Positions 20,320 to 58,823 of a stretch of 64,000 nt of DNA are shown here, piece after piece (positions within the stretch are counted from its first letter, which is position 1; each line of letters opens with the position of its first letter). Under the pieces are notes generated by a model that saw only the letters and a program-made list of their open reading frames with translations, had not been told where the DNA came from and ran no database searches. A program made the translations under genes and the position numbers. The stretch lies in assembly GCA_049426725.1 (NCBI GenBank), contig JBMSYN010000003.1, positions 42,066 through 106,065 on the forward strand, in the 5' to 3' direction. The stretch comes from Candidatus Kapaibacteriota bacterium. Lineage in GTDB: Bacteria; Bacteroidota; Ignavibacteria; Kapaibacteriales; UBA961.

Positions 20320-20325
20320 TCAATC

Positions 20326-40836: not shown

Positions 40837-41502
40837 TTAGGGAGAAAAAGTGCATTCAATGATTTTCTTCTCTTCTTTAGAAAACCAATCCACGCCAATC
40901 CAATGTATGGGGGTTTCTTTCACGACCAATCCTGGAAAGGCGATTTTTGCTTCATGTATTTCAGTTGTGAGATCTCCACCCTTAAGTAAAATATATGAGC
41001 CTTCTTTTTTTAGCAAGGGTTTGGTCCATTGTATTAGAGATGAGATGGGCGCAACAGCTCTGGCTATGATATAATCAAAAGAATTGACTTGAGATGTATC
41101 TTTTGCGATGTCTTCCATGCGAGAGACAATTGCTTTGAAATTTCTCTGTCCGGTATGATCTGCGAACATTGCTGTCAATTTCATCTTTTTTGCAATGGAA
41201 TCAACGAGTGTGAGAGATATATCAGGTCTTGCAATGCCTATCGGAATTCCGGGAAAACCTCCTCCGCAGCCAACATCGATACATCGACTTTTGGGTTTAA
41301 TCAGATTGGATTTGACGATGCTCAGAGAGTGCATGAAATGCCTGATCCAAATATTATCCATGTCTTTTCTGGAAATCAGATTGACTTTTTCATTCCAGTA
41401 CACCATTTCATCATGGAATCGTTCGAAAGTTTCCATTTGCTCTCTTGTGAGCAAGATGCCATTAGCATTGCACAATGTCCAAAATTCCAATGGATCCATC
41501 AT
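40837..41502 (-). CDS. rsmG: 16S rRNA (guanine527-N7)-methyltransferase RsmG
   Basis: SAM-binding CIDVGCGGGFPGIPIGI. 221 aa GidB family. Confidence 0.85.
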   Translation of the reverse strand: MMDPLEFWTLCNANGILLTREQMETFERFHDEMVYWNEKVNLISRKDMDNIWIRHFMHSLSIVKSNLIKPKSRCIDVGCGGGFPGIPIGIARPDISLTLVDSIAKKMKLTAMFADHTGQRNFKAIVSRMEDIAKDTSQVNSFDYIIARAVAPISSLIQWTKPLLKKEGSYILLKGGDLTTEIHEAKIAFPGLVVKETPIHWIGVDWFSKEEKKIIECTFSP

Positions 41503-42428
41503 GTAAAGATTCCTTCTTTTATTCCACGATATCCGCGTAAAAAATCCATTATTGACATTTGGGGTTTACCTTCTTCTTGAATAGTGAGGAGAGACACATT
41601 GTCGGAACCGGTTCCAACCATAAAATTGGAGCCTTCAATGACAAATCTTCCAGATTCTAAGTTCATGGAAGAATCCGAGATTGCAGCTTTCAAAATCTTC
41701 AATGTTTTTCCATTGAACGTTGTCCATGCACCCGGCTTTGGATTTGTTCCACGAATCAAATTAATGATGTGATCCGCCGAATTGTTCCAATTGATCGAAC
41801 ATGTGCTTCTAAACAATTTCGGTGCCGGTGTTGCATGTGCATTATTTTGAGGGATGGGCTTTGCTTTTCCGCTCAATAAATCTCTACATGTTTGAACAGC
41901 AAGTTCGGCAGCAGGAATTTCAAGTGCTAAAAAGAGGTCGCCGGCAGTCATGCTAGGTTCAATCTCAATTGTTGACTGCGCGAGAATCTTCCCTGTATCT
42001 ACTGTATCATTGAGCAAGAAGGATGTCAAGCCAGTAGTAGTTTCACCATTGATGATTGCCCATTGTATTGGAGCTGCCCCACGATACTTTGGAAGCAAAC
42101 TTCCATGAATATTGAAAGCTCCGAGTTTTGCAAGTGAATACACTTCTTTGGGAAGTATTCGAAAAGCAATAACAATGATGATATCTGGTTTATATGCAGC
42201 AATTGTTGAAATGAATTCAGGATCTTTTAAGCTATGTGGAGTCAATAATGGTATACCAAGCGCAATAGCTTCTTTGCTCACCGGCGAACTTTGTAATACT
42301 CTACCTCTTCCGGCAGGTTTATCAGGAACGCTTACTATTGCAGTTAAGCCAAAGGCATCATGAAGAGCTCGAAGTGCAGGAACTGCAAATTCGGGAGTGC
42401 CCATGAAGATAATTGATGGAGTATTCAT
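41499..42428 (-). CDS. fmt: methionyl-tRNA formyltransferase
   Basis: IIFMGTPEFAVP N-terminus. Formyltransferase motif HGSLLPKYRGAAPIQWAII. Confidence 0.9.
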   Translation of the reverse strand: MNTPSIIFMGTPEFAVPALRALHDAFGLTAIVSVPDKPAGRGRVLQSSPVSKEAIALGIPLLTPHSLKDPEFISTIAAYKPDIIIVIAFRILPKEVYSLAKLGAFNIHGSLLPKYRGAAPIQWAIINGETTTGLTSFLLNDTVDTGKILAQSTIEIEPSMTAGDLFLALEIPAAELAVQTCRDLLSGKAKPIPQNNAHATPAPKLFRSTCSINWNNSADHIINLIRGTNPKPGAWTTFNGKTLKILKAAISDSSMNLESGRFVIEGSNFMVGTGSDNVSLLTIQEEGKPQMSIMDFLRGYRGIKEGIFT

Positions 42429-42432
42429 TCAA

Positions 42433-43011
42433 TCAACCATGCATGGTGGGTTGATGACCAAGTGTTTCAATGATGGCGGCTTCTATTGTAGCCAGTTCAT
42501 GCAGGCGATCTTTTACAATGTTGGCAGGGAAATATGCTCTGGCAAGATCAGTAAATGTTTTGTAATGACCCGCCTCGCTGGCAAACAATTCTTTGTAGAA
42601 TATTCGCAAGTCTTCTGGTATGGCCGGTGACTTTGCAAGAAGAGAGAATCTCTCGCAAGATCGTGCTTCGATTAATGCATCAACCAAGAGAAGATCAAGC
42701 ATTCTATCCGGTTCTTGTTTTCGAATATGTTTGGAGAGACGCTTTGCATACTCATCACCTCGATCTTTGGTGAGATGATTTTGTTTGTCTCTGATACGAT
42801 CATACACTCTTTCAAAATGTTCCCATTCTTCTTTGAGAATATTGATCATTTCTCGGACTATATCTTCATGTTCAGGATAGCGTTGAATCATGGACATTGC
42901 ATTGGCAGCTGCTTTTTTTTCGCAATGAGCATGATCAATCAGGAGGGTATTGATGTCAGCAGCAGCGATATTTACCCATTCGGGTCTTGTATTATTGAGT
43001 AAACAAAGCAT
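42433..43011 (-). CDS. miaE: tRNA ms2io6A37 hydroxylase MiaE-like (ferritin-like di-iron)
   Basis: Di-iron motifs (DHAHCEKKAA, EEWEHF, SEAGHY). The long ORF to 43098 would overlap rnpB, so the start at 43011 is preferred. Confidence 0.6.
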   Translation of the reverse strand: MLCLLNNTRPEWVNIAAADINTLLIDHAHCEKKAAANAMSMIQRYPEHEDIVREMINILKEEWEHFERVYDRIRDKQNHLTKDRGDEYAKRLSKHIRKQEPDRMLDLLLVDALIEARSCERFSLLAKSPAIPEDLRIFYKELFASEAGHYKTFTDLARAYFPANIVKDRLHELATIEAAIIETLGHQPTMHG

Positions 43012-43024
43012 AGAAAAAAAGAAG

Positions 43025-43412
43025 AAACGAAGCTGTCTATAAGCCGAATTCTGTCTCCCTAGGGAGGAGAAGCATTTATCTTGATACAATGTTGCCATTG
43101 CATTCCTTGCGGCATACCCGAAAGAGTTACTATCGAACGAGCAATTCGATTGTCCGAGGACACCTCTTTCTTATTTGCCTTGCTCCGCGTGGGGTTTGCC
43201 TTGCCATTCATGTCACCATGAATGCGGTGAGCTCTTACCTCGCCATTTCAACCTTACCGAATAATCGGCGGTATATTTTCTGTTGCACTTTCCGTCGACT
43301 TCTCATTTCTTGCGAAATGCATCATCGCCTTTGTGTTACAAAGCACGCTGCTCTATGGAGTTCGGACTTTCCTCACCGTGAATCACGGCGCGCTTCTCCG
43401 ACAGCCCCGTCA
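43025..43412 (-). ncRNA. rnpB: RNase P RNA (bacterial type A)
   Basis: Minus-strand transcript contains GAGGAAAGUCCGAACUCCAUAG (P4 region), AGUGCAACAGAAAAUAUACCGCCGAU, GGUAAGAGCUCACCGC, CGGAGCAAGGCAAAUA, and the 3-prime ACAGAAUUCGGCUUAUAGACAGCUUCG that pairs with the 5-prime GGGGCUGUC (P1). Ends are accurate to about 10 nt. Confidence 0.85.
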
Positions 43413-43419
43413 ATTGTGA

Positions 43420-44121
43420 TTATTCTCCGACTAAAATTCTTCCGCAGTGTTCGCATAAGAACATCAAATCGGATTTATTTCGCATTTCGACTATTTTCTG
43501 TGGTGGTACTGCGCTAAAGCAACCGGAGCAACTATTTTTCTTTACCTTCACAGCCGCATCTTTGTGGAACGTGCGAATGCGTTCATATTCTGCAAAAATC
43601 GATGTTGGAATTTCTTTCGCCAAAGAAGCGCGCTTTTTTGTTTGTTCCAGAATCTCATCATTGTGTCCATGAGAAATGGAAGTGAGCTCTTGCTCTTTTT
43701 CAGAAAGATGTTGTTGTGCTTCTGCAAGTTCAGTTTTGCTTTGCTCCATGATGGCACGAAGATTTTCTTCTTTAACGCCTATCGTCCTTTGATCATCATA
43801 AATTTTATTGCGTTCATCTCTCAAAGATTCAATTTCATGAGTTATGGCATCGAATTCTTTGTTATTGCGAACATTGAACTGTTGCTGCGCCAATTGATCT
43901 TCTTTGTCTTTGATTTCTTGAAGGCGAATATGCGAACGACTTTTGAACTCTTCAATATCGTGAATGTCTTTCTCTGATTGTTCAGCTTGTGTTGTTTTCA
44001 AGCGTACATACTCTTCTGCTTCTTTCACTTGCTGTGGCAAATCGCCAAGTTCTTCTTTCAGGTCATCCAGAATAGAGTCAATTTCCGACATGGATGACAA
44101 CATTGTAGCGAGTGAGTTCAT
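43420..44121 (-). CDS. C4-type zinc-ribbon coiled-coil protein (COG1579/DUF164)
   Basis: Long coiled-coil region followed by CSGC...CEHCGRIL zinc ribbon. Adjacent to a Nif3 gene, a conserved pairing. Confidence 0.6.
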   Translation of the reverse strand: MNSLATMLSSMSEIDSILDDLKEELGDLPQQVKEAEEYVRLKTTQAEQSEKDIHDIEEFKSRSHIRLQEIKDKEDQLAQQQFNVRNNKEFDAITHEIESLRDERNKIYDDQRTIGVKEENLRAIMEQSKTELAEAQQHLSEKEQELTSISHGHNDEILEQTKKRASLAKEIPTSIFAEYERIRTFHKDAAVKVKKNSCSGCFSAVPPQKIVEMRNKSDLMFLCEHCGRILVGE

Positions 44122-44165
44122 AATGGGCTCTTGGTGATAGATGAATGATTCAAATAAAGTTCATG

Positions 44166-44963
44166 TTAAGCATAGTGAATTGGGGAAGTCTTGACCTCTG
44201 AATTGATGATATTCAACTGTTTCAGTTGTTCATCTTGTTTCAGTAATGTGCTCATTCCTTCAACTACGAATTGTTCCATTTCTGCATGCCCGGGATCAAT
44301 AAGCATAATTGTGCCTTTGGCTGCATGAAACTGATGATATTTCACATCTGCTGTAATAAAACAATCAACATTGGCATCGATGGCAGCTTGCATGTATTGG
44401 GAACCACTACCACAAACCATGGCAATGGTTTGTATAGTGTCTGTTTTGCCATTTGTAAAACGTATTGGCGCTCCAAAAACATGCGCGCAATATTCTGCAA
44501 ATTTTTGAGTGTTCATTGATTCTTTCAGCGAACCAATAATTCCCATTCCAAAATGAGGATGCATTTGATCAGGAATGAGAGGTTGCAATGAAGTATCATC
44601 CAGGCCGATTGATCGCGCGGCAAGCGCATTTGTTCCATGCGGATGAGTATCGAAATTTGTGTGTATGACTATGACTCCGATATTGTGTCGAATGAGATCA
44701 TACACAAGGGAAGAGACTCTGTCTTGTCTGGTGATTGTTCTCAGAGGCGAAAAAATCAGCGGATGAAAGACACATATACAATCAACTTGTCGAAATACGG
44801 CTTCTGAAAGAACTTCTTCATTTATCTCATAGGCTATGAGCAATGATTGAATATCTCCATTGTGTGGATGATGATCAATTTGCAAACCTATTGCATCTCC
44901 ACTCCAGGCAGTTTCAGGAGGAAAAAGTTCATTGAGTCTCTCATTCAAATCACTAATTGTCAT
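44166..44963 (-). CDS. Nif3-family dinuclear metal centre protein (YqfO/YbgI)
   Basis: 265 aa. Conserved His clusters (HTNFDTHPHG, DPGHAEME). Confidence 0.8.
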   Translation of the reverse strand: MTISDLNERLNELFPPETAWSGDAIGLQIDHHPHNGDIQSLLIAYEINEEVLSEAVFRQVDCICVFHPLIFSPLRTITRQDRVSSLVYDLIRHNIGVIVIHTNFDTHPHGTNALAARSIGLDDTSLQPLIPDQMHPHFGMGIIGSLKESMNTQKFAEYCAHVFGAPIRFTNGKTDTIQTIAMVCGSGSQYMQAAIDANVDCFITADVKYHQFHAAKGTIMLIDPGHAEMEQFVVEGMSTLLKQDEQLKQLNIINSEVKTSPIHYA

Positions 44964-45047
44964 GAACTGCCAAGTGTAAATTCTAATGAATATTACTCAA
45001 AAATAACAAAGTTTTTCCAAATCAGCCATTTCCAAGGCATTGCAACC

Positions 45048-46220
45048 TTAATTTGATGGCTTTGGCAGTACACCTGGAGAGGGAACAGCTCCTGTAGTTG
45101 CAGACTTTTTCTTTTTTGAATATTGAATAGAAGCTCTCAATTTTACTCCATCTCTTATGATGCCACGAGCTCTCAATGTGTCTTCAGCAGAAACATATCG
45201 CTCTTTGTTTGGCAATCCACCACGAGCGCTACTTGGTACTTGAGAAATTGGAATCCATGCTTCTTCAGTAGCCAAAGGATCTTCAGGCAATGTGATTTTG
45301 AAAGAATTGTCGGTAATATCCCACCATGGTCCGCCTTTCTTTCTGGTGAAATCGAACATATCCAAAATGATGACAGTCGTCCCTGAGAAAGGGATATATC
45401 GTCTTTTCAGGGTATCTCTTTTTGCACCTTCACCCCAATAGAATAGCCATCTCGCATCATCTCTAAATTGGCGAATGCAAGAGTGCGAGACGGGTCTTCC
45501 CGGCATGTCGAATTGATGGAATGCACTTCCGGCATGTAGATGGAAATTCCATGTATAGGGAAGAATCCAACTTGAATTCAAAGAGGATCTACGTAAAATA
45601 TGTCTCCAATTGAGGGAATATTTTCCTGGGAAAGTAGCTTTTCTCTCCTCGCCTGTATTACATGCTGCAAATCTCACAAGTTTCCCATATTCATAACAAG
45701 CATAGCTTTGCCAAGCATTTGAAACCATGATAATTTTAGGAATGGAGTCAACTGCATGATATTCAGCAGGGAATATTGAATAGTCGGTGAGATTGGGTGA
45801 GAGCATGCTTGGTATCATGACGGTGTCACCAACTCTGAAATAATGCAGATCTTTTCTGTTAACGGTGATGAATGCTCTATATGCGATATTCTGGATAGTG
45901 TCAATTTTTCGATATGCTCTACGAATCGAATCTAGATGCTTTCCATTGGCAATCACGGTCTTTCTGTACGTGATTAACTGTCCATTTGCAACAGTTTGAG
46001 ACTGTTTGGAATTCGTCAAGCTTGTACTATCTTTTCGATTTGAATCAGCATTGACTGTTTTCTTGACTTTTTTGGATGTTTTTTTCGGGTTTCCTGCTTC
46101 TTGAGGATTTCCCGGTGTATTGCCACAAGTTCCCCAACCCAATGTCAAAGAGGCGAATGCCCCTATGATCAGCAATGTTGCTTGTTTCCCATTTAAAGGT
46201 AAACGATTCATAAATCTCAA
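45048..46220 (-). CDS. L,D-transpeptidase-family protein
   Basis: YkuD catalytic motif with His...SHSCIR (FHLHAGSAFHQFDMPGRPVSHSCIRQ). Signal peptide. Confidence 0.65.
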   Translation of the reverse strand: MRFMNRLPLNGKQATLLIIGAFASLTLGWGTCGNTPGNPQEAGNPKKTSKKVKKTVNADSNRKDSTSLTNSKQSQTVANGQLITYRKTVIANGKHLDSIRRAYRKIDTIQNIAYRAFITVNRKDLHYFRVGDTVMIPSMLSPNLTDYSIFPAEYHAVDSIPKIIMVSNAWQSYACYEYGKLVRFAACNTGEERKATFPGKYSLNWRHILRRSSLNSSWILPYTWNFHLHAGSAFHQFDMPGRPVSHSCIRQFRDDARWLFYWGEGAKRDTLKRRYIPFSGTTVIILDMFDFTRKKGGPWWDITDNSFKITLPEDPLATEEAWIPISQVPSSARGGLPNKERYVSAEDTLRARGIIRDGVKLRASIQYSKKKKSATTGAVPSPGVLPKPSN

Positions 46221-46236
46221 ACCTCAAAAAATAATG

Positions 46237-46944
46237 TCAATTTCCAAATGCAATACCCAGTGCAATAAATAATCCACCAAAATCTGAAATTGGTAAATCT
46301 TTGATGCTTTCTAGACCTGCTCCACCATAAGGAATGAAATAATACCGTATTAATGCCGAAAGGGAGGTTCTACCTTCTGAACCAAAAGCCGAACCTAATC
46401 CAACATATCCTGCTGGTCTGCCATGTGCCAATGTCCTTTGCTCGGTTTGTACAAGATTTTCATTATACGGTACTTGGAGAATCATCGCATAACCAATCCC
46501 TCCGCCGATGAATGGTCTGAATGAATCAGACAGTGATTCTTTAAACAGACGATACTGTAAACCAAGTGTCAAAGGAAAAGAAAAAAGTCTGTTCACTTTG
46601 TTTGGTATGAAAGTAGCACCAGTAAAAGGATCTATGTATTCAAGTTCATCACTATTTCTATTGCCGGTCATTCCAAGTAATCCATGTAGTGATACTGTAG
46701 ATGAAATGTGCTTGGAATAAGAAAAACCCGCCCCAAATCCATTCCCTGAAAAGAGCATTTCAATACTCCAATATGAGGAATGTTTGAGCGATTCCATCTG
46801 CTCGGTTATCAGTGGTCTTGGTGATTTGAACACTATTATTGAATCAGGTACTGCACCAAATTCAGTGATTGACTTCTCTTGTCCATTCATCAATAGAGTG
46901 AATCCAAAAATGAAATGGCATATCAAAGCAATAAAAGACTTCAT
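46237..46944 (-). CDS. outer-membrane beta-barrel protein (OmpA-beta-barrel/OmpW-like)
   Basis: Signal peptide from MKSFIALICHFIF. Amphipathic beta strands. Terminal aromatic residue ...IAFGN. Confidence 0.45.
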   Translation of the reverse strand: MKSFIALICHFIFGFTLLMNGQEKSITEFGAVPDSIIVFKSPRPLITEQMESLKHSSYWSIEMLFSGNGFGAGFSYSKHISSTVSLHGLLGMTGNRNSDELEYIDPFTGATFIPNKVNRLFSFPLTLGLQYRLFKESLSDSFRPFIGGGIGYAMILQVPYNENLVQTEQRTLAHGRPAGYVGLGSAFGSEGRTSLSALIRYYFIPYGGAGLESIKDLPISDFGGLFIALGIAFGN

Positions 46945-47032
46945 CCTGATTCCCGAGAATGACACCTAAACCCAAGCAAGAAATATGCCATGTTGATTCT
47001 TTACGGCAAGTATGAATGAACAATTATGTGCT

Positions 47033-48007
47033 TTAATATAAAAGGAGTTCTCTCAGTTCCTGTTCAATTTTATCTGCATTTGGAAGCATTGCCTTTTCGA
47101 GAGTTGGTGCAAAAGGCGTTGGAGAATCGAAAGCCGCAACCCTCTTTATGGGTGCGTCCAATGCATCAAATGCCTTTTCTGTGATTCTGGCAGAGATCTC
47201 ACCTGCGAATCCACCTGTCAATGTTGCTTCATGTGTAATGAGAACTCTATTGGTTTTTCTTGCAGAAGCAAGAACAGTTTCTTCGTCAAAAGGGACAAGT
47301 GTTCGTATGTCAATAATCTCAATGGAGACTCCTTCTTTTTCCATTCTTTCAGCAACTTCCATTGCCATGTGTACAGCGCTGCCATAGCATATTATGGATG
47401 CATGAGTCCCTTCTCGTACAATGCGAGCTTTCCCCAGTGGAATCGAGTATTCTCCTTCGGGCACTTCTTCCTTGATTTTTCTATATAATCCTTTATGCTC
47501 AAAAAACACGACAGGATTATTGTCTCGGATAGATGCGGTCATGAGTCCTTTTGCATCAGCAGGGGAAGAAGGGCATACAACTTTCAATCCTGTTGCTTGG
47601 ACAAACCATGCTTCGGAATTTCTGGAGTGAAAGGGATTTGCGCCTACTCCACCACCAGCAGGGCCTCTCACAACAATCGGCACACCAATGCCCCAGCGAT
47701 AGGCAGTAGTTCCGGCAACATTCACCAATTGATTGAATCCGCAAGTGATGAAATCCATGAATTGCATCTCAACAACCGGACGCATGCCATTGAGGGAAGC
47801 ACCTATGGCTGCACCAATGATTGCGGCTTCAGAAATGGGTGCATCGATGATTCTTTGAGTGCCAAATTCTTCAAGAAATCCCTTTGTTAATTTGAAAGCT
47901 CCACCATAGGTGCCTATATCTTCTCCAATCATAAAAACGGATTCGTCTTTTCGCATTTCGATTTTCAATGAATCGGCAATGGCTTCGAGATATGTCATGA
48001 CAGGCAT
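47033..48007 (-). CDS. 2-oxoacid dehydrogenase E1 component beta subunit (transketolase-like)
   Basis: Start MPVMTYLEAI. Motifs MIGEDIG, FKLTKGF, RIIDAPISE, VVEMQFMDF, and C-terminal transketolase domain. About 324 aa. Confidence 0.85.
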   Translation of the reverse strand: MPVMTYLEAIADSLKIEMRKDESVFMIGEDIGTYGGAFKLTKGFLEEFGTQRIIDAPISEAAIIGAAIGASLNGMRPVVEMQFMDFITCGFNQLVNVAGTTAYRWGIGVPIVVRGPAGGGVGANPFHSRNSEAWFVQATGLKVVCPSSPADAKGLMTASIRDNNPVVFFEHKGLYRKIKEEVPEGEYSIPLGKARIVREGTHASIICYGSAVHMAMEVAERMEKEGVSIEIIDIRTLVPFDEETVLASARKTNRVLITHEATLTGGFAGEISARITEKAFDALDAPIKRVAAFDSPTPFAPTLEKAMLPNADKIEQELRELLLY

Positions 48008-48026
48008 AATGGAACCTTCTAATTTA

Positions 48027-49205
48027 TCATTGTTGTGGGTGAATGGATATGCAGTCTGCAATGTGCTTTGCTTTCGCTCTGAGAGATTCAATTGTTGTAG
48101 CAGAATCGCCCCATGTGAGAGCGACGCCCATGCGCCGATACTTTCGAGTCACTGGTTTGCCAAATAATCGAATGTCGGATTGAGGAATTGAAAGTGCATC
48201 GACAAAACCGGTAAAACCAGGTTTGAATTGCTCTTCTTCTGTATGTAAAATGACAGCGCTAGCGCCAGGTCTTTCCAATTGAATATAGGGAATAGGCAAG
48301 CCCAATACTGCTCTGCAATGAAGCTCGAACTCAGTAAATGTTTGAGTTCCCGCAAGGGTTACCATTCCAGTATCATGCGGACGTGGACTCAATTCTGAGA
48401 AATACACGTCATCACCTTTGATGAAAAATTCAACGCCCCATATACCTGCGCCCGAAAGCGCCGTTGTCACTTGTTCTGCTATCTCGCAAGCTTTTTTGTA
48501 TGCAATCTCTGACATCGCACATGGCTGCCAACTTTCTTGATAGTCACCTCGTTCTTGTCTATGTCCGATTGGCGGACAAAACAATGTAGGACCTGATTGC
48601 TGGGTCACTGTAAGCAATGTTATCTCATAATCAAAGCTGATGAATTCTTCGATGATTACTTCACTTGAATCGCCTCTACCACCGGTGGCGGCATAATTCC
48701 AACATGCTTCGATGTCTTCAGGACTTTTTATTGTGGATTGACCTTTGCCCGAGGATGACATGAGTGGTTTGATGATGCAAGGAAATCCCATTGTATGTGC
48801 AATGGTTTGTGCTTCTTCCAAGGTTGTAGCATACCCATATTTGGCAGTCTTTACTGATAACTCCATTGCAGCAAGATCTCTGATCGCTTTCCTGTTCATG
48901 GTAAAGTTAGCCGCTTTGGCACTTGGAACTACCTGAATGCCTTGTTCTTCATAGGTATAGAATCTCTCGGTGCGAATTGCTTCAATTTCAGGAATGATGA
49001 TATCAGGTTTATGCTTTTCGATGATTGCATCCAATGCATTGCCATCCAACATTGAAATGACTTCGAAGTCATCGGCAACATGCATTCCGGGTGCATCAGG
49101 ATAAGAGTCTACGGCAATGACATGATTTCCTAATCTTTGAGCGCTTATGATTGTTTCTTTTCCAAGTTCTCCGGAACCTAGAACCATGATTTTTTTGGGT
49201 AGCAT
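48027..49205 (-). CDS. purT: formate-dependent phosphoribosylglycinamide formyltransferase
   Basis: ATP-grasp PurT signature along the entire length ([55 protein letters not shown]). Confidence 0.9.
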
Positions 49206-49210
49206 AGTTG

Positions 49211-50206
49211 TTAGTCTATGAATACATTTCGGAAAGCTTCCTCTGGTGGAGGAAAAGGCAAATCAATCACTGCATCGATTGCATCCCGAATGTCTTGAAT
49301 GATGTGTTGTCGCATTGCATCAATCTCTGCTTTTTTCAATGCTTTGTGCTTAATGCAATGTTCTATATATCTGTCAACTGGATCCATGTTTTGCCAATGC
49401 GCGAGCATTTCCTTTGGAACATAGCTGAAATCATCATGCTCGGCATGACCCCTCATACGCATCGTTATTGTTTCAATGATTGTTGGCCCATCTCCATTTC
49501 TTGCTCGCTTTACTGCTTCGAGAGTGGTTTCATATACCAATTCAATATCAGTTCCATCAATTGTGATTCCATGACAACCATATCCTTTTGCTCGATCAGA
49601 AAGTTGCTCGCATGCAAATTCAATGGAATTGGGAGATGAATAGGCATATTGATTATTCTCGATGATGAGAATGAGAGGTAATTTCTGGACTGATGCAAAA
49701 TTCATGGCTTCATGAAATTCGCCTGTTTGAGAACCACCATCTCCGATATATGTCATTGCAACACACATCTCTCCACGCAGTTTTGATGCCATGGTAAATC
49801 CTGCTGCAACAGGAATCATCGCTCCCAAATGAGAGATGTTTCCATAAATTCTTTTGGAGGGATCAGCATAATGTCCGGTACCATCAGTTCCACGCATAAG
49901 ACTTCCTTCTCGAGCCAAAAATGCTTTCATGAGAATATCCAAGTCTTGTCCGAAAACGAAATGACCACCAATATTTCTATGCATGGGAAACAATACATCG
50001 TCCGAACCCAATGCTGATGCGGATCCAACGCTTGTTGCTTCATTTCCTGTTTGTGAATATACTCCACCGAAAGCTCGACCTTGCCTATTCAATCTTTGCA
50101 TAGCAAGATCGAACTCTCTTGCCATAAGCATATATCGTAGAAATGAAATACGTTGTTCATTGGTTACTGATGAAGAATGCATCAGCTTGGGAATTGTTTT
50201 CGACAT
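49211..50206 (-). CDS. 2-oxoacid dehydrogenase E1 component alpha subunit (TPP-binding)
   Basis: TPP motif ([20 protein letters not shown]...IIENNQYA). ATG start at 50206 preferred over the TTG at 50221. Confidence 0.85.
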
Positions 50207-50217
50207 GGTATTGATGT

Positions 50218-52350
50218 TCAAAGTGTGATGATTGTACCTTGTTGCATTGATTCAACGGCTGCAATGCTTGCCTCTGTGACTTGGTGAATGCTCGCAAATG
50301 AAATAGGACAAGGATTTCCTGATTTCATGGCTTCAATGAATGCATGAACTTCTTCTTTATGTCCTTTTTTTCCATCATAAGTACGCTCTTTACTTTTCTT
50401 CCCGGCTGAGAAAACAACAGAGGTAAAATTCTTCATGATTGCTGATTTACCTTCAGCAAAAACTTCGCAATATTCCTTCTCAACAGATGGATCGCCATTT
50501 GCTAAATATAAAATGGTACCGATGCTGCCATCAGAAAAACGGATGGTTATATGGGTTGAATCATGATGCCCAATATGTCTGCCTTCATGAGATAAAGCAT
50601 TCGCATATACTGAAATTGGTTTGGCATTTGTGAGATAAACCATACAATCGATGAAATGACATGCCTCACCGATGATTCTTCCTCCTTGTTTTGGATCTTG
50701 AATCCAACTTGATAATGGAATTGCACCTGCATTCACGCGATACATCATAGAAAGTGGAGAAGTTCTCTCAGAGAAAAACTTTTTGATATCAACAAATGGT
50801 TTGGAAAATCTGCGATTGAATCCAACCATGACATTTCCACCATGTGATAGAATGGAAGATTCTATGGCTTTCAATTCTTCTCTTGTAACACATAATGGCT
50901 TCTCAACAAAAATTGGCTTATGATGCTGGAGAGCAGAGAGAACATACGCTGCATGTGAATCATGTCTGCTAGCACAAAACACTATATCAGTTTTGGGATC
51001 ACGAATGATGTCTTCAGAATTTGTGCTTGCATGAGCAAATCCATAATGCTTTGCAACAGAGAGTGCATTTGCAGGACTCGATGTTGAAACAGCATGCAAG
51101 CGAACACTGAGTGAACGCAATGGGGGAAGCAACTGCGCTTGCGCAAAACTTCCTGCGCCTATGAATCCAATTGCAGGATTATCTAATGGTGATGTCGAAG
51201 AATTGACGGTAACCATCGATTCCGGAATTGCATCAGGATTGTATAAAAGGGTAATACCCAAATGCGGTTCCGGATTTTTTCCGGATATGATGTCATAAGC
51301 ATGCAAGGCATCAGATATTGCAAATGTATGAGTTGTTAGATGATCGGTTTTGACCGAGCCTTGCTCCATCAAATCAATGAATGCCTGCATATTTCTTTGT
51401 TCTGTCCAGCGTACATATCCCGCGGGGTAATCAATGCCTTGCTCTTCATATAGTGGGTCATATCTTCCCGGACCATAACTACAGGATATTCTGAGATCCA
51501 ATTCTTTTTCATAGAATGGTGAACGCGGTATATTCATTGGAACTGCACCCACAATCACGATTGGACTTTTTTTGCGTGAGATATTCAAAGCCAATTGAAT
51601 GGGTGCTTCGGAATCAGTGCTGGCTGTGATGATGACGGCATCAGTTCCAATCCCTCTCGTGAAATGCATGATAGTAGAAACTGCATCTTGATTGCTTTGA
51701 AGTGCGATGTCGCATCCATGAAGTTTTGCTAGAGAGAGAACTTCATCATTCACATCAAGTCCAATCACCCTACAACCAGATGCCTTGAGCATCTGCACAG
51801 TCAATTGCCCAAGTAGTCCAAGTCCAATGACAGCAACTGTCTCACCTAAACGGAGATCCGCCTGGCGAATACCTTGAAGTGCAATTGCACCAAGCGTTGT
51901 ATAGGAAGCATCAATGAAGGAAACAGAATCAGGAAGTTTGACTGCAAGATTTTTGGGGACGCTTATGAATTCTGCATGATGTGCATATTGAGCTCCTGCG
52001 CATGAAACTCTGTCACCGGGAGAGAATTCTTCACATGTTGATTCAATCACAATTCCAGAGGCACTATAACCAAGAGTTTTATAGGAATCCAATTTCGCTT
52101 GAACGCGATCAATTGTTGATTTGATTCCATCTCTTTTGAGTGTATCAAGAACAAGCTTGACTTGTTCGGGTTGTTTCTTTGCTCTCTCCAGAAGTGAGGC
52201 TTGTCCACCGACAACGGAAGTTCTTTCTGTGCCGGCGCTTATGAGTGAGGCAGAAGTACGGACTAGGATCCCCCCTTCTTTACATTGTGGGGAAGGAACT
52301 TCGAGTAATGACATTTCGCCATTCTTTTGGTATTGTACAACTTGCAACAT
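50218..52350 (-). CDS. bi-domain oxidoreductase: MDR zinc-ADH-like N-terminal half fused to Gfo/Idh/MocA C-terminal half
   Basis: N-terminal half has the GroES-like/Rossmann pattern (VAVIGLGLLGQLTVQ). C-terminal half has the Gfo/Idh/MocA Rossmann (IGFIGAGSFAQAQ) and EKP motif (FVEKPL). Confidence 0.75.
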   Translation of the reverse strand: MLQVVQYQKNGEMSLLEVPSPQCKEGGILVRTSASLISAGTERTSVVGGQASLLERAKKQPEQVKLVLDTLKRDGIKSTIDRVQAKLDSYKTLGYSASGIVIESTCEEFSPGDRVSCAGAQYAHHAEFISVPKNLAVKLPDSVSFIDASYTTLGAIALQGIRQADLRLGETVAVIGLGLLGQLTVQMLKASGCRVIGLDVNDEVLSLAKLHGCDIALQSNQDAVSTIMHFTRGIGTDAVIITASTDSEAPIQLALNISRKKSPIVIVGAVPMNIPRSPFYEKELDLRISCSYGPGRYDPLYEEQGIDYPAGYVRWTEQRNMQAFIDLMEQGSVKTDHLTTHTFAISDALHAYDIISGKNPEPHLGITLLYNPDAIPESMVTVNSSTSPLDNPAIGFIGAGSFAQAQLLPPLRSLSVRLHAVSTSSPANALSVAKHYGFAHASTNSEDIIRDPKTDIVFCASRHDSHAAYVLSALQHHKPIFVEKPLCVTREELKAIESSILSHGGNVMVGFNRRFSKPFVDIKKFFSERTSPLSMMYRVNAGAIPLSSWIQDPKQGGRIIGEACHFIDCMVYLTNAKPISVYANALSHEGRHIGHHDSTHITIRFSDGSIGTILYLANGDPSVEKEYCEVFAEGKSAIMKNFTSVVFSAGKKSKERTYDGKKGHKEEVHAFIEAMKSGNPCPISFASIHQVTEASIAAVESMQQGTIITL

Positions 52351-52429: not shown

Positions 52430-55400
52430 TTATCTGATTACTTCCAATTTGCGAGTTGCTTTGTAGTGTCCTGCTTCCAAAACATAGAAATATGTGCCGC
52501 TTGAAAGACCAGATACATCCAAAAGCTGGGAATATTCACCTTTTTCGACAGTACTTGTTGAGCTTGAAATGGTTTTGATGAATGTACCATCAGAACTGTA
52601 GAGACTAAGAGTATATGCTACTTTTTCATTCAATACAAATCGTATTTCTGTATTGTTCATTGCTGGATTCGGTACATGTTGCATCAATGTGGGAAGGTCC
52701 GTATCAAATGACAATGTATGAAGACCACATTTTGGTGTGATGATGCATGTTGCATTTTCAAGCAGAGGAATAATGTTTACAAATGGCAATGAATCGGTTG
52801 TAACAATTATTGGTTCAATATACATTGAAGAGATTGCCGAGTCGGGAACAGCAATTGTAAAATTCACTTTTGCTAATTCACCTTTTTTGACTGAATCCAA
52901 TTGTTTGAACTGCAAAGTGAGATTTCCTGGTGCATAGATAATGTCAATGTTTTTCGATAATGATTGATCAATCGATTCATACTTTAACGCATTGGGGTTG
53001 TATTTCAATGTAAGTGCAAATGACACTGATTGCAGATAATAGGTGATTGAACGATAGCTGGTTGAAAAGTCCTCTCCGATGGATATAGGAACAGATACTT
53101 TATCGCCAAGAGCTCCGGAAACAGTGTCGATGATGCTAATTCTTTGTCCGATTGAAAATGGTACTTCCAGATTTGGAGCGAAGCCAATGCCTGCAACAGA
53201 ACTTGTGTCTGAAATCGTGCATGGTATTAGTGAGTTCACATCAATCTTCGAACTAATTGATGAGGAAGAACGAGGACAGAACCGGATGATGCATTGCAAA
53301 GTGTCATTTGGTTGAAGCAATGAATCAAGAGGAGGTGTTGAACCTATCAATGAAAAGCCTTTTGGAAGACCTATGATTGACGAAATCTTTATGGGAAGAT
53401 CTCCGTCATTCAAAATGCTCAATGTTGTGTCGATGCAATCCAAAATTCGCACGCTATCATAACTGGCGGCACCCAGTACTTTTAATGAAGATTGTTTGAT
53501 TACAACCTGGCCGGTATCAGGCTCTGCATAAATTCTGTATAGGATAACTTTTTCAGTGTCGAAGAATACACTATCAATGAAAATTGGAATTGAGGCACGT
53601 TTCTTCGTTTTTGACTGAAACAACGCTGTAAAAATGGGTTTCGTGGAATCTACTTTGCAGAAGTTCTTGACCTTTATCAATGTACCACGAGGGTATGTTG
53701 CAATTGAAATTCCCGGCGAATATTTTACATCACAAGAATTGGATAAGTAGGGGCTTTCAACTCCTATATATTGCAATTGGGTTGTGTCATGCTCCAAACC
53801 ACAGTGAATGTCGATCAACTCTGCAGGGATGTCTCTTGAAGCAAATACTGGTATCCTTACAGTATCGCATTGCGTGGCAGGGAAGGTATCTCTTAAGATT
53901 CTTTGATTGTCAAAAGTGAATGACATCCCAAATGGATTTGCTTGCCCAAGACCGGTTACCAAAATAGTTGTATCGGTTTCAGCACAAGGTTGACTTACAT
54001 GGAGAACAACTCTCGCTTGATATAATCTTGGAGCCCTAGGTTTGAAAAGCAGTTGAAATCGTAAAGTATCACCGCTTCTTAGTGTTACTTGAGTAAATGG
54101 GGTTCCATCAAATTTTGCAGCCGTGAATACTCTTTCATCCGGAAAAAATGAAATTGAATCAATCACAATGGGGAATTGATCCGGGTTCTTATCAAATGAT
54201 GGTATGGTTACTCTGCCCAATAATGGATTCAGTGTTGTATCCACCGGCGTTGGCGGAAATGTGAGCGAAATTGGTTCCGGTTTATATGTCAAAGCTCTTT
54301 TGCCTGCCAATACAACGCGGAAATTATTCTTTGACCAACCAGGTCCATAAGCTTTGATTCTGATTTGTGCTGCGCAATTGATGTATTTGTCTTCTGCAGG
54401 AGTTCTGGGACAGAATAAAACTTTTACTGTGTCTGTTGCATCTTTAGGTATCGTATAAGGTAATGTTCCCTTTGGAGAATAGGTAGAACTCCAACTCCAG
54501 AATTGGGGTGTTCCATTTGGAATGCCCGTACTGTCAATAATCAATGAATCTACAGTCATGCCATGCACAATGGATTGATTTACCAATGGCAGCCTTCTTT
54601 CTATGCAATCGCATGGTTTTGTATAACCCCAATTCATGAGTGAAATTGGTACATCAAGTGGAATGATGATGCCTCTGCCTGTCAATGACCCTTGTTCAGA
54701 AATTGGACATGGGTAATCTGAATAAGCTTTGATTATTCCATTATATGTTTTGGCTGAATCAGGCTTGAAACGTACTCTAACAAGTATGGAGTCTCTTGGA
54801 GCCATTACAGTGGGTATGGCTTTTGACATTGATACAATCGTGAAGCCTTGGGGTATCGTGAGTGAGTCTAATCGCACAGGTAGAAATGAGACATTTTCCA
54901 CAAGTATTGTTTGAGAAATTGTATCGCTTACTTCAACGGTGCCAAATGTTGTGAGTGGCGTAATAAATAGTTTTGGATTTGCAGAGGTTCCATAGAGTGG
55001 AGCAGACCACTTCACAGTATTTGATTCATAATTCAAAAAAGCTCGATCGGCTCTGTCTTTTGTGATATCATTTGGAGTGTATTTGAAAATGACACGTAGT
55101 TTGCCTCCAGTCGGAATGATCGTGTCAAGAGAAAGCAAATTAGGAGGCGAGATAATCGAATATTTTCCTGATGGATCTGCAAGTGCAAACTTTTGTACTC
55201 GCTGATTGAATGTTGCGATGTTCAATATGTCCAATGTGTCGAGTTGCTCACCACAACCTAAAACATTTTCTGTTTTCATCATGATTGGATCAAACTTGAA
55301 TGTTTCCAGAACACCTCTGCCTTTTACTTGAATGCAATCGGTTGTGAAACATCGAGTTTCAAAGAGACATAGTTTATCGACATATTGTGAATCTTTCAAT

Positions 55401-57448
55401 GGTTTGAAATCTATCTGAACATTTTTTGTTTCACCCGGGGCTATACTGAATGATCTGCCACCCGGAAAGAAAAACACTTCACCGACCTCGAAGTAAAATG
55501 AGATATTCAATGGATCAACAGCTTCATTTTTAATTGAAGCGATTATGCGTTTTTGTTGTCCAACGATGCAGTCACCGGAATCAATGATTCTGGCAGTCCA
55601 TCGTACTTTTGCTTCATATCCTGTTCCGGATAAATAGATCTTTTTCTCAAATGTGCAGGAAATTCCTCTTATTGTGTAGCGAATGATTGCTGAATCATTG
55701 TATTTGCCTGACCTTTGAGGAAAGAATCGAAAATAATTGGCTGAGTATCCTGTATTGGGATTCAAGACGGGTTTATTTCCAAGTTTTCTTCCTGTGAATC
55801 CTGCAGGCACAATGATCGTGTCTATTGTAATTGGACGCGAAGTGAGATTCTTCCAAACCCACATGCTTGGATTTGATAAAGTATTAATACATTCCACTCC
55901 CCAACGAACTGAATCAACTTTTCTGTTTCCTGCTTCATTGGTTATAGCCAATACTTCTCGCACAACACCTCTGACCGGAACTGTGATGAACTTAGGTTCG
56001 CATTTGTCTGTGGTGTTTATCGTGAGCGTATCAAAAAAGATATTTGATGTATCAGTTGGATTTACTCTAAACCTCACAACTATATCAACGCATTTACCAG
56101 GTTGAATAATTGCAGGAAGTGCAGGGGATAAAATGCTGAATCTTCCGGGAATTTTATTGACTATTGAGGTTATTGAAACAGCTCTTCCTTGTCCTGGTCC
56201 CAAGGAATCAGAATAATTGCAAATCTTGTATGTTGTGTCTTTAAAGGTTTGCGAAGGACAACCAACATATAATGTATCAAAATTGATTGGAGTTCTGGGG
56301 AAGGATAATTCCGTTTTTCTATTCAGGCGTATTGGAACAACTATTTCTCGTCCACAGGCATTTGTTGGTCTGATTTTTAAATCTGCAATCAGTGGTCCAA
56401 CTACACTCGTTCTTACTCTAACATTAATCGTATCAGGTTTGCCAGGCAATAGATTAGTTGAAGCTTTGTTGATGGTGAATGCATTTTTGTCAACATTGTC
56501 CATGATGAATGTTGCGCCGCTGCCACAAACAGAAGTATCAGTAATGATGAATGTAAATGTTTTTTCTTGCAAGCATTGTAATTCTTCTGTCACTGAAGTG
56601 GGTTGGACAATTACTTTTTGTTGTAATGCTCGATCAGAGGTTACACATCTTGTTCCGCTAAACATTGTACCATTGAAATTCTTACCTGTTGCATCGCAAA
56701 GTGAAACAACTCCATCTGCTTCATTGCATCTGTAATACAATGTCAGATTTGGTGTATTCCATGCAAGTGAATTTGACATATTACAATACAGTTCGGATGG
56801 CGATAAAGCCTTGTTCCAAAGTCGTATTTCATCCATTTGTCCTCTGAAAGTACGATTGATGGTTGTATTATCAGACAAACCATTTGTACTTCCAAACATT
56901 AATTTTAACCCTTGTTTTTCCGGTGGTCGCAGATATGAAGCAGGATAGGTTGGATTATTGGTAGGGCCTGCAACGAGCTCGCTATTCACATATATCGATA
57001 CGGTATTTGCAGCACCATTGAATATTGCAGCAATATGTGTCCACTTTCCAAAAAATGATGCAAAGGGAACGCTTGTTTTTGTATTATCAACACTACGAAG
57101 TTTTGTGCCATCGCCATTTACTTCGAAAACTAAATCATTGTTTTGATTGATGAATAATTGCCATGAATCATTATTGTCGAAGCTTGGCCCCCAAAGCCCA
57201 CCAAGAAACTGCACTGTATTGGGTAAACGATCAATTTTGACCCACATTTCGAGTGTCATTGCAGTTTGTTTTCTGTCGGGTATTGAATAGCCGGCAACTT
57301 CTACGAAATGCGCTCCTCTTCCACTATTAACAGACATTTGAACCGCTCTACCTATACAAGAGCGATCTTTATCACAGGCAGGTTGGGCAAATAGTCGAAA
57401 AGAGCATAAGCCAAGGAGCAAGAGAAATATTGGGGTAAAGTGCTTCAT
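52430..57448 (-). CDS. giant secreted protein with N-terminal LamG/concanavalin-like domain and C-terminal T9SS sorting domain
   Basis: Signal peptide. LamG-like region (LTLEMWVKIDRL...IRLWNKALSPSEL). About 1300 aa of repeated beta-rich modules. C-terminus ...GTYFYVLEAGHYKATRKLEVIR typical of a T9SS type-A CTD. Confidence 0.8.
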   Translation of the reverse strand: MKHFTPIFLLLLGLCSFRLFAQPACDKDRSCIGRAVQMSVNSGRGAHFVEVAGYSIPDRKQTAMTLEMWVKIDRLPNTVQFLGGLWGPSFDNNDSWQLFINQNNDLVFEVNGDGTKLRSVDNTKTSVPFASFFGKWTHIAAIFNGAANTVSIYVNSELVAGPTNNPTYPASYLRPPEKQGLKLMFGSTNGLSDNTTINRTFRGQMDEIRLWNKALSPSELYCNMSNSLAWNTPNLTLYYRCNEADGVVSLCDATGKNFNGTMFSGTRCVTSDRALQQKVIVQPTSVTEELQCLQEKTFTFIITDTSVCGSGATFIMDNVDKNAFTINKASTNLLPGKPDTINVRVRTSVVGPLIADLKIRPTNACGREIVVPIRLNRKTELSFPRTPINFDTLYVGCPSQTFKDTTYKICNYSDSLGPGQGRAVSITSIVNKIPGRFSILSPALPAIIQPGKCVDIVVRFRVNPTDTSNIFFDTLTINTTDKCEPKFITVPVRGVVREVLAITNEAGNRKVDSVRWGVECINTLSNPSMWVWKNLTSRPITIDTIIVPAGFTGRKLGNKPVLNPNTGYSANYFRFFPQRSGKYNDSAIIRYTIRGISCTFEKKIYLSGTGYEAKVRWTARIIDSGDCIVGQQKRIIASIKNEAVDPLNISFYFEVGEVFFFPGGRSFSIAPGETKNVQIDFKPLKDSQYVDKLCLFETRCFTTDCIQVKGRGVLETFKFDPIMMKTENVLGCGEQLDTLDILNIATFNQRVQKFALADPSGKYSIISPPNLLSLDTIIPTGGKLRVIFKYTPNDITKDRADRAFLNYESNTVKWSAPLYGTSANPKLFITPLTTFGTVEVSDTISQTILVENVSFLPVRLDSLTIPQGFTIVSMSKAIPTVMAPRDSILVRVRFKPDSAKTYNGIIKAYSDYPCPISEQGSLTGRGIIIPLDVPISLMNWGYTKPCDCIERRLPLVNQSIVHGMTVDSLIIDSTGIPNGTPQFWSWSSTYSPKGTLPYTIPKDATDTVKVLFCPRTPAEDKYINCAAQIRIKAYGPGWSKNNFRVVLAGKRALTYKPEPISLTFPPTPVDTTLNPLLGRVTIPSFDKNPDQFPIVIDSISFFPDERVFTAAKFDGTPFTQVTLRSGDTLRFQLLFKPRAPRLYQARVVLHVSQPCAETDTTILVTGLGQANPFGMSFTFDNQRILRDTFPATQCDTVRIPVFASRDIPAELIDIHCGLEHDTTQLQYIGVESPYLSNSCDVKYSPGISIATYPRGTLIKVKNFCKVDSTKPIFTALFQSKTKKRASIPIFIDSVFFDTEKVILYRIYAEPDTGQVVIKQSSLKVLGAASYDSVRILDCIDTTLSILNDGDLPIKISSIIGLPKGFSLIGSTPPLDSLLQPNDTLQCIIRFCPRSSSSISSKIDVNSLIPCTISDTSSVAGIGFAPNLEVPFSIGQRISIIDTVSGALGDKVSVPISIGEDFSTSYRSITYYLQSVSFALTLKYNPNALKYESIDQSLSKNIDIIYAPGNLTLQFKQLDSVKKGELAKVNFTIAVPDSAISSMYIEPIIVTTDSLPFVNIIPLLENATCIITPKCGLHTLSFDTDLPTLMQHVPNPAMNNTEIRFVLNEKVAYTLSLYSSDGTFIKTISSSTSTVEKGEYSQLLDVSGLSSGTYFYVLEAGHYKATRKLEVIR

Positions 57449-57476: not shown

Positions 57477-58496
57477 TTATTCTATGTCGCTTTGAAAATA
57501 GGAAATCAATCGATCATCATGCAGAGAAGACAATTCATCAGTCTTTTTTTGTATTTCTTGTTCCAATGTTTCTGAAAATACATTTGCAGCATGATAGCCA
57601 TAGGTTTTAAGCAAATAATTCAGAGCAATCACTTCGGCAATAACCGTGACATTCTTTCCCGGAAAAATAGGAAGAATCACTCTAGAAACAGGAACTTGAA
57701 GAATCGAAAAAGGATCTTCATCGAGTCCAGTTCTTGTATAATTACCGTCTTTGTTCCATTCTTCGAGTTCTACCACTATTTCCAATCTTTTTTGGAAGCG
57801 TATGGCACGGATGCCGAACATTTTCTCAACATTTATGATACCGAGCCCTCGTATTTCCATGAAATGCTTTACGAGTGAAGTCCCAGTACCCATGAGTACA
57901 TTTTCGCGTTTTTTTGTGAGCATAATCACGTCATCTGCAACTAGGCGATGACCTCTTTCAATCAAGTCAAGAGCAATCTCACTCTTTCCAATTCCACTTC
58001 TACCATGAAGAAGAACCCCTACACCATAAATATCCACAAAAGAACCATGAACCACTGCCTGTTCGGCAAATTGATCTTCCAAGAAATCAGATAGCAAGGC
58101 AATGGTTTTTGTTGTTCCAAATGGTGTTTGAAACATAGCGATATTGTGTTGCTTTGCAATCTCGATGATTTCATTATCTATTACATGATCATTTGTTGCA
58201 ATAATGCAGGGAATATCAAACTCTGCCAAAGTTTTGAAAGACTTGATTCTATCTTCATGAGATAATGACTGAAGATAGTAAATTTCTGTATTTCCAAATA
58301 CTTGTACTCTATGATAAGTAAATAACCCCACAAAACCCGCTAAAGCCAATTGAGGGCGATGCAGACTCTTGTCGGTGATGAAATTATCAAGTCCAATTTC
58401 ACCCGTCAATTGCGTCCATTGAATTGGAGCTTTGAGGAGAAGTCTGACCGGAATCATTTCTTTGGAAATAGGTTTTATTTGATCGAGTAAGCTCAT
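57477..58496 (-). CDS. hprK: HPr kinase/phosphorylase
   Basis: Walker A in HprK context (LLHGRSGIGKSEIALDLIERGHRLVADD). 339 aa. Confidence 0.85.
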   Translation of the reverse strand: MSLLDQIKPISKEMIPVRLLLKAPIQWTQLTGEIGLDNFITDKSLHRPQLALAGFVGLFTYHRVQVFGNTEIYYLQSLSHEDRIKSFKTLAEFDIPCIIATNDHVIDNEIIEIAKQHNIAMFQTPFGTTKTIALLSDFLEDQFAEQAVVHGSFVDIYGVGVLLHGRSGIGKSEIALDLIERGHRLVADDVIMLTKKRENVLMGTGTSLVKHFMEIRGLGIINVEKMFGIRAIRFQKRLEIVVELEEWNKDGNYTRTGLDEDPFSILQVPVSRVILPIFPGKNVTVIAEVIALNYLLKTYGYHAANVFSETLEQEIQKKTDELSSLHDDRLISYFQSDIE

Positions 58497-58509
58497 GCAT
58501 TTTCCATAG

Positions 58510-58803
58510 TTACATTCTTCGATAGTCGGATTGTTTTTCTCTTAATCTGCGTAATTGTGATATCATTTTATCTGTGGCTGAATGAATCGCTTTATCAAAA
58601 TCATGTCCGGAATCTTTTGAACTGAGAACATGATGATTGACATGCACGATAAATTCTACTTCTTTATCATGTTCTTCAGATAGCACAACTTCTGTACTTG
58701 TAATTTGAGGATGTGCTTTTGAAAATTGTTCTGCTTTGTTTTTCAATGTCTCTTGCAATTCTGGCCAGGCTTTGAAATGTCTGGCTGTAATGGTGAAAAT
58801 CAT
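58510..58803 (-). CDS. hpf: ribosome hibernation promoting factor (HPF/RaiA, short form)
   Basis: Start MIFTITARHF. About 97 aa sigma-54 modulation protein fold. Confidence 0.7.
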   Translation of the reverse strand: MIFTITARHFKAWPELQETLKNKAEQFSKAHPQITSTEVVLSEEHDKEVEFIVHVNHHVLSSKDSGHDFDKAIHSATDKMISQLRRLREKQSDYRRM

Positions 58804-58823
58804 GATGTCCTCCTTGGAATAGA

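Follow-up and report, generated by a model that had tools for sequence, protein, structure and literature searches.

Heterotetrameric E1 components of 2-oxoacid dehydrogenases, such as those of the Geobacillus stearothermophilus pyruvate dehydrogenase (PDH; PDB 1w85) and of Thermus thermophilus (PDB 1um9), consist of an alpha subunit (E1_dh domain) and a beta subunit (Transket_pyr and Transketolase_C domains). PurT of Escherichia coli (PDB 1kj8, 1eyz) is a formate-dependent glycinamide ribonucleotide (GAR) transformylase, with side activities on acetyl phosphate and carbamoyl phosphate. In a 64-kb stretch of DNA from a Candidatus Kapaibacteriota bacterium (the whole of which is hereafter called the window), genes for these two systems lie in one block: on the minus strand, a bi-domain oxidoreductase gene is followed by E1-alpha, purT, and E1-beta, with intergenic gaps of 11, 5, and 19 nt. 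This order and its coordinates are as given in a preliminary description of the window, and the open reading frames (ORFs) and domains match. That description left it open whether the placement of purT reflects a new enzymatic linkage or simply an operon rearrangement, and the comparative evidence favors the latter. The block is a conserved gene-order quirk and not a new enzyme system. Very likely, it goes back to a single neutral relocation, within the genome, of the genome's own purT into an alpha/beta junction that was already unconstrained, with the resulting order kept by inertia in a compact string of housekeeping genes.

The distribution of the block was examined by scanning with an E1-alpha profile, using one genome per species, which yielded 80 loci whose gene content was classified by tblastn (homologous contigs and genomes are labelled L001 onward). 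The order oxidoreductase-alpha-purT-beta was found in seven species representatives (L007, L008, L009, L013, L014, L015, and L048) and in the metagenome contigs L001–L005, and E1-alpha in the purT-bearing loci is 74–100% identical to that of the window. An assembly or binning artefact was rejected, as the same order recurs in independent NCBI metagenome-assembled genomes (MAGs), in JGI and Logan assemblies, and on the closed 2.49-Mb chromosome OZ123195.1 (L014). Ten purT-bearing loci are monophyletic on a neighbor-joining tree of E1-alpha (91 of 100 replicates). The PurT proteins from an E1 context are likewise monophyletic (166 of 200 replicates, with an ingroup that includes P0167, a protein whose genomic context is not known and which is sister to L014), and their internal topology is congruent with the E1-alpha tree. 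The monophyly and congruence of the two trees thus indicate one purT insertion followed by vertical descent.

The loci L006, L010, L011, and L012 form the sister group when E1-alpha is used for the tree; in them, alpha and beta are adjacent, without purT or the oxidoreductase gene, and L011 reads arginase-family gene, x, HPF, HprK, x, alpha, beta, the same upstream backbone as in the window. Judged by this comparison, purT between alpha and beta is the derived state. Two changes are specific to the clade, namely the presence of a gene for a protein secreted by the type IX secretion system (T9SS) together with the oxidoreductase gene between HprK and alpha, and the presence of purT between alpha and beta. 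The T9SS gene, encoding a Laminin_G_3/Ig protein, is present in L002, L007, L009, L014, L015, and L048 and absent from the sister loci; in L004, three opposite-strand genes separate it from the oxidoreductase gene. In the two out-of-clade purT loci whose context was examined (L091 and L092), purT lies among unrelated genes with no E1. Relatives with purT elsewhere and with adjacent E1 genes, and an arrangement confined to one strain, were what the preliminary description counted against its claim; the first two are indeed seen in these loci, but the arrangement extends over at least seven species representatives in a monophyletic clade. In one of them, L015, the PurT match begins about 90 nt further into the gene (L015:10987-11056; estimated gap −91 nt), so that purT of this MAG may carry a frameshift, be misassembled, or be truncated at its 5′ end.

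The preliminary description regarded E1 alpha and beta genes as almost universally adjacent, an expectation that the E1 family of the window does not bear out. Adjacency could be classified in 78 determinable species-level loci (L007–L086). Alpha and beta lie within 150 nt of each other in 41 of these and are separated by 151–500 nt in three more; 15 loci carry one or more genes between them (seven in the purT clade and eight others), and in the remaining 19, a stretch of at least 3 kb downstream of alpha lacks beta. Inserts outside the clade include a leucine-rich repeat protein (L016:1925-3118) and small ORFs without a Pfam match (L018:10997-11943 and L022:4780-5372), and in L020, L035, and L036 the gene after alpha encodes a T9SS protein, a BatA/VWA protein, or a SpoIIE phosphatase. 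None of these genes has a relation to purine or 2-oxoacid metabolism. This lineage evidently does not protect the alpha/beta junction, and an insertion there therefore needs no functional explanation.

The wider family bears on the ancestral context of the alpha-beta pair. Orthologues with 42–58% E1-alpha identity sit in complete operons with lpd and a lipoyl-bearing E2. The fullest arrangement, lpd-lipB-fused alpha′beta′-alpha-beta-lipoyl-E2-lipA, was found in Bacteroidota MAG087 (L054:5692-14172), and the core layout lpd-alpha′beta′-alpha-beta-E2 occurs in about a dozen other loci, including L050, L055, L058, L059, L064, L065, L067, L071, and L086. In operons of the L054 type, two E1s (a fused or split alpha′beta′ together with alpha-beta) apparently share one lipoyl-E2 and one lpd. 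Since distant orthologues occupy complete operons and the loci with at least 57% identity have no E2 or E3 nearby, the alpha-beta pair of the window is, on present sequence evidence, what remains of a classical complex operon broken up in Kapabacteria and their close relatives. In the history we propose, the lpd-lipB-alpha′beta′-alpha-beta-E2-lipA operon would have disintegrated in these lineages, leaving E2 and E3 to be encoded at other sites. A single move of the native, orthodox purT into the alpha/beta junction would then date to the last ancestor shared by one clade of freshwater Kapabacteria; on the same branch the T9SS gene and the bi-domain oxidoreductase gene would have come between HprK and alpha, and all of the rearranged genes would have been inherited vertically since.

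The identity of the inserted gene is consistent with such a history. An exact look-up of the window PurT sequence returned no match, and homologues were used instead. The protein lies above both curated equivalog cut-offs (NF006766, 566.7 vs. 339 bits; TIGR01142, 525.6 vs. 502.15 bits), contains the pre-ATP-grasp, ATP-grasp, and PurT_C domains (PF22660, PF02222, and PF21244), and matches E. coli PurT from end to end (1kj8_A, 381.7 bits), with the motifs [33 protein letters not shown] and FGKP..RR kept. We take these motifs to line the ATP and GAR sites, as in the E. coli structures. The nearest outgroups on the PurT tree are proteins labelled Kapabacteria or Chlorobi. Horizontal acquisition of purT was rejected as the main explanation, given these outgroups. 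The first description of the protein as a PurT paralog finds no support: it groups with vertically inherited PurTs of the Kapabacteria/Chlorobi type, and by these sequence measures it is an orthodox PurT that should keep its standard annotation name. It would do the usual job of converting formate, ATP, and GAR to formyl-GAR. Within the window there is no second purT and no purN, and the sole Formyl_trans_N gene is fmt (42428..41499). Purine genes are scattered: purC (SAICAR synthetase) and purB (adenylosuccinate lyase) lie side by side at 19438..21621 on the plus strand, about 27 kb from purT.

A direct functional coupling of PurT and E1, in which the ATP-grasp enzyme would act on formate or on an acyl phosphate made or used alongside the E1 reaction, is suggested by the location of purT between the subunit genes, by a mild rate acceleration specific to PurT in the clade, and by the side activities of the E. 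coli enzyme mentioned above. We regard this coupling as most improbable. PurT is an equivalog-level orthologue with intact GAR-, ATP-, and formate-site motifs, and neither formate nor an acyl phosphate is produced by E1 chemistry. The association arose once and is absent from the sister lineage and all other lineages, and the same junction is filled by unrelated genes elsewhere. The link to formate or acyl phosphate raised in the preliminary description lacks comparative support, with no independent recurrence of purT beside E1 genes among the 80 species-level loci. Conservation within PurT points the same way: of 191 columns at least 97% conserved in other PurTs, 188 are retained in the clade, and the three clade-wide changes (A21S, A40G, and A168C) are all conservative and outside the motifs listed above.

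Several observations nevertheless weigh against a neutral relocation kept by inertia. Clade PurTs are about 20% further from their outgroup set than other PurTs of the Kapabacteria/Chlorobi type are (0.431 vs. 0.360), whereas the corresponding excess in the clade is only about 5% for E1-alpha and 3% for E1-beta. The block has remained intact over a divergence that reaches down to 74% identity for E1-alpha, 69% for PurT, and 48% for the neighboring 242-aa protein, and even where the upstream region is rearranged (L004), which selection for co-expression could also produce. Under pure neutrality, two separate insertions flanking E1-alpha on the same branch are a coincidence. Finally, no E2 or E3 lies within 10 kb at any locus with E1-alpha identity of at least 57%, and none was located for the clade. 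The excess PurT divergence appears to be a weak residue and not evidence of new function, because the comparison set consists of the best hits to the window protein and is thereby biased towards slow evolvers. It is conceivable, if very unlikely, that PurT became tied to E1 after the relocation, either because its translation and assembly became obligatorily joined to those of alpha and beta or because it took on a moonlighting role with acyl phosphate or formate. If this were true, oxidoreductase-alpha-purT-beta would be a genuine metabolic module, and the rate acceleration would be its trace.

The persistence of the block can also be read as selected co-expression without shared chemistry, in which, after a chance insertion, a shared promoter with the E1 subunits proved advantageous, for instance because purine synthesis would then follow central-carbon flux or growth rate. 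The block is intact with short gaps in all ten clade loci, and it stayed intact in L004 despite the changed upstream genes. Inertia, however, predicts the same persistence, since only a precise event could cut out an essential gene that is flanked by two co-translated subunit genes. Moreover, the unrelated neighbors YkuD, NIF3, MiaE, and fmt are equally conserved in order across the clade, and the arrangement has not recurred independently elsewhere. Selected co-expression is, overall, an unlikely explanation, if less so than a coupling of PurT to E1 chemistry.

A neutral relocation followed by inertia is also in keeping with the organization of the surrounding DNA. The four-gene block belongs to a run of at least 16 co-directional genes of unrelated function: arginase-family gene, HPF, HprK, T9SS protein, oxidoreductase, alpha, purT, beta, 242-aa protein, YkuD, NIF3, Zn-ribbon protein, MiaE, fmt, rsmG, and SLT/LysM. 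Unrelated neighbors are as closely spaced as the block genes, with 4 nt between MiaE and fmt, a 4-nt overlap of fmt and rsmG, 13 nt between HPF and HprK, and 16 nt between the 242-aa protein gene and YkuD. Tight packing of unrelated genes is the norm in this genome. The short gaps within the block (5–19 nt in the window and at most about 66 nt in other clade members) make co-transcription of its four genes probable, and in the window they are too short to house a promoter or a terminator. Transcription signals were uninformative: a scan for consensus sigma-70 promoters gave 42 sites against 54.5 expected from shuffles, the promoters of the Fibrobacterota–Chlorobiota–Bacteroidota (FCB) group differing from the consensus used, and a terminator scan gave 19 against 13.4 expected from shuffles, which is not above background. 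It is worth noting that shared function does not follow from close spacing and a gene order conserved throughout a clade alone, especially in compact genomes in which unrelated housekeeping genes lie 4–20 nt apart.

Outside the clade, the first gene of the block shows no association with E1. No NCBIfam model reached its cut-off on the oxidoreductase, and its homologues (55–86% identity overall, 55–63% outside the clade) carry the NCBI name “bi-domain-containing oxidoreductase.” In the sister MAG GCA_046328995.1, the gene lies beside carB on a separate megabase contig (L093), with alpha-beta on L012, and two other out-of-clade oxidoreductase genes adjoin ftsK or a carboxyltransferase gene. The oxidoreductase, purT, and E1 genes are thus unlinked outside the clade, and the oxidoreductase would act independently of both E1 and PurT. 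A literature search on the bi-domain oxidoreductase, and another on Kapabacteria with pyruvate dehydrogenase, returned nothing relevant.

The sequences of the E1 subunits bear on what this pair might do. Both start codons are backed by homologues: the 331-aa E1-alpha is identical to the NCBI MAG protein P0001, and E1-beta aligns with 1um9_B from residue 1 (304 bits over the alignment). The ThDP (thiamine diphosphate) motif GDG...NN of E1-alpha (G155-D156-G157...N184-N185) is invariant in alignment A1. By alignment, E1-alpha H254 corresponds to alphaHis271 and E1-beta H127 to betaHis128 of the G. stearothermophilus enzyme (1w85), residues that we take to be catalytic in the reductive acylation of lipoamide. 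E1-alpha is divergent, reaching only 137 bits to any solved E1-alpha, and it contains an invariant segment, [10 protein letters not shown], that has no counterpart in the solved structures; its subfamily has a mean column identity of 70% across Kapabacteria, Ignavibacteria, and Bacteroidota. Among the PDH E1 equivalogs considered (TIGR03181, TIGR03182, and NF008854), none is reached. The best NCBIfam match of E1-alpha is PDH_E1_alph_x, at 254.3 bits against a cut-off of 411.35, and another PDH equivalog gives 219 vs. 393.85; E1-beta lies below the PDH equivalog (335.2 vs. 454 bits) and passes only the subfamily model NF006667 (339.2 vs. 321 bits). No substrate is assigned to the enzyme, because E1-alpha is divergent and below the PDH cut-offs; calling it a pyruvate dehydrogenase appears unsafe on present evidence, and so do automatic labels to that effect. 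By its conserved residues, the E1 looks functional and lipoyl-dependent. Its alpha2beta2 form would decarboxylate a 2-oxoacid (pyruvate or a branched-chain one) and then reductively acylate a lipoyl-E2 encoded elsewhere.

These features also bear on a route that would dispense with E2, in which the oxidoreductase and E1 alpha-beta together would carry out a non-canonical cleavage or ligation, such as an acetoin-type reaction or a two-carbon transfer between sugars. The lack of E2 and E3 within 10 kb in any close relative would fit such a route, as would the sub-threshold scores of E1-alpha and the oxidoreductase gene that ends 11 nt before it. Against these stand the conservation of both histidines of lipoyl reductive acylation and the occurrence of orthologues in complete operons with E3 and lipoyl-E2 (in L054 also with lipB and lipA). 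In addition, outside the clade the oxidoreductase gene is unlinked to E1 and has a different neighbor each time (carB, ftsK, or a carboxyltransferase gene), which also speaks against the oxidoreductase–E1 partnership suggested at first, and the same conserved E1-alpha occurs without the oxidoreductase in dozens of species. We consider an E2-independent pathway highly improbable. For the genes of the block as a whole, we infer that functional coupling is absent, in line with a neutral relocation.

The statement that no E2 or E3 gene lies nearby holds in part. In tblastn searches with the E. coli proteins AceF, SucB, and Lpd, which were also run on the homologous loci, no lipoyl-bearing E2 or E3 came to light in the window, but an E2-type catalytic domain does occur 9.9 kb from the E1-alpha start, in an OdhA/Kgd-type protein in which the E2o succinyltransferase catalytic domain is fused to a 2-oxoglutarate E1. 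The protein has the Pfam architecture 2-oxogl_dehyd_N, 2-oxoacid_dh, E1_dh, Transket_pyr, and OxoGdeHyase_C, with no lipoyl domain, and scores 1651.7 bits on NF008907 (cut-off 878). It thus shows the architecture used to recognize OdhA/Kgd in earlier work (bioRxiv 10.1101/2020.07.24.212647), and NCBI already annotates the gene as such. In the clade loci L007, L009, L015, and L048, the gene start occupies the same divergent position. OdhA relies on lipoyl groups provided in trans (PMC10415282), and a lipoylated E2 can therefore be argued, by analogy, to be encoded elsewhere in this genome. The OdhA fusion, together with the scattered E1 genes, raises the possibility of several E1s sharing one lipoyl-E2, as in the supercomplex of PDH and 2-oxoglutarate dehydrogenase (ODH) of corynebacteria. 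The literature treats the OdhA/Kgd architecture as essentially unique to Actinobacteria, and its presence in Kapabacteria is a more interesting lead than the placement of purT.

The coordinates of the block and its neighbors are collected in the table. HPF and HPr kinase/phosphorylase (57477..58848, minus strand) lie directly upstream of the E1 locus, and the sister lineage (L011) has the order HPF-HprK-alpha-beta. HPr kinase and E1 were already linked before purT was inserted, perhaps as mere neighbors. Farther away, at 26904..29708 on the minus strand, the window encodes a 934-aa fusion of FAD_binding_4 and FAD-oxidase_C with a 4Fe-4S dicluster domain, which resembles glycolate oxidase or D-lactate dehydrogenase.

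Table. Positions in the window of the genes of the E1/purT block and of the genes around it.
Feature	Coordinates	Strand	Remarks
Bi-domain oxidoreductase	52350..50218	(-)	710 aa; ADH_zinc_N plus GFO_IDH_MocA N- and C-terminal domains (Pfam); first gene of the tight four-gene block
E1-alpha (ThDP-binding subunit, heterotetrameric 2-oxoacid dehydrogenase E1)	ATG 50206..stop 49211	(-)	331 aa; PF00676, 226.6 bits
purT (formate-dependent GAR transformylase; the inserted gene)	49205..48027	(-)	392 aa; ATP-grasp plus PurT_C
E1-beta	ATG 48007..47033	(-)	324 aa; Transket_pyr plus Transketolase_C
Arginase-family gene, HPF, HPr kinase (ancestral upstream backbone)	57477..59735	(-)	Pfam; directly precede E1-alpha in the sister lineage
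T9SS-secreted Laminin_G_3/Ig-repeat protein	52430..57448	(-)	1672 aa; Pfam; in the clade, between HprK and E1-alpha together with the oxidoreductase
Downstream string: 242-aa protein without Pfam match, YkuD, NIF3, Zn-ribbon protein, MiaE, fmt, rsmG	40837..46965	(-)	Pfam
OdhA/Kgd-type fusion	60069..63686	(+)	1205 aa; Pfam, NF008907; outside the operon

Overall, the comparative series shows operon decay within one phylum, from a full operon through an orphan alpha-beta pair to alpha-X-beta or unlinked alpha and beta. The cluster of L054 holds the orthologues of the window E1 subunits, with 54% identity for alpha and 57% for beta; relative to it, the E1 genes of the window lineage are no longer linked to lpd, lipB, alpha′beta′, E2, and lipA, and the locus has gained purT, the oxidoreductase gene, and the T9SS gene. 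With the E1 components of G. stearothermophilus and T. thermophilus, the window E1 shares the subunit and domain make-up, the ThDP motif, and both histidines, and it differs in its divergent alpha, in the purT gene that splits alpha from beta, and in having E2 and E3 not adjacent. The fusion protein has a Pfam architecture identical to that of Corynebacterium OdhA and Mycobacterium Kgd, likewise without a lipoyl domain, whereas its host is a Kapabacterium, a member of the FCB group. By comparison with E. coli PurT, finally, the window PurT has the same domain architecture, motifs, and equivalog membership, and it differs only by its position between the E1 subunit genes and by the mild apparent rate acceleration in the clade.

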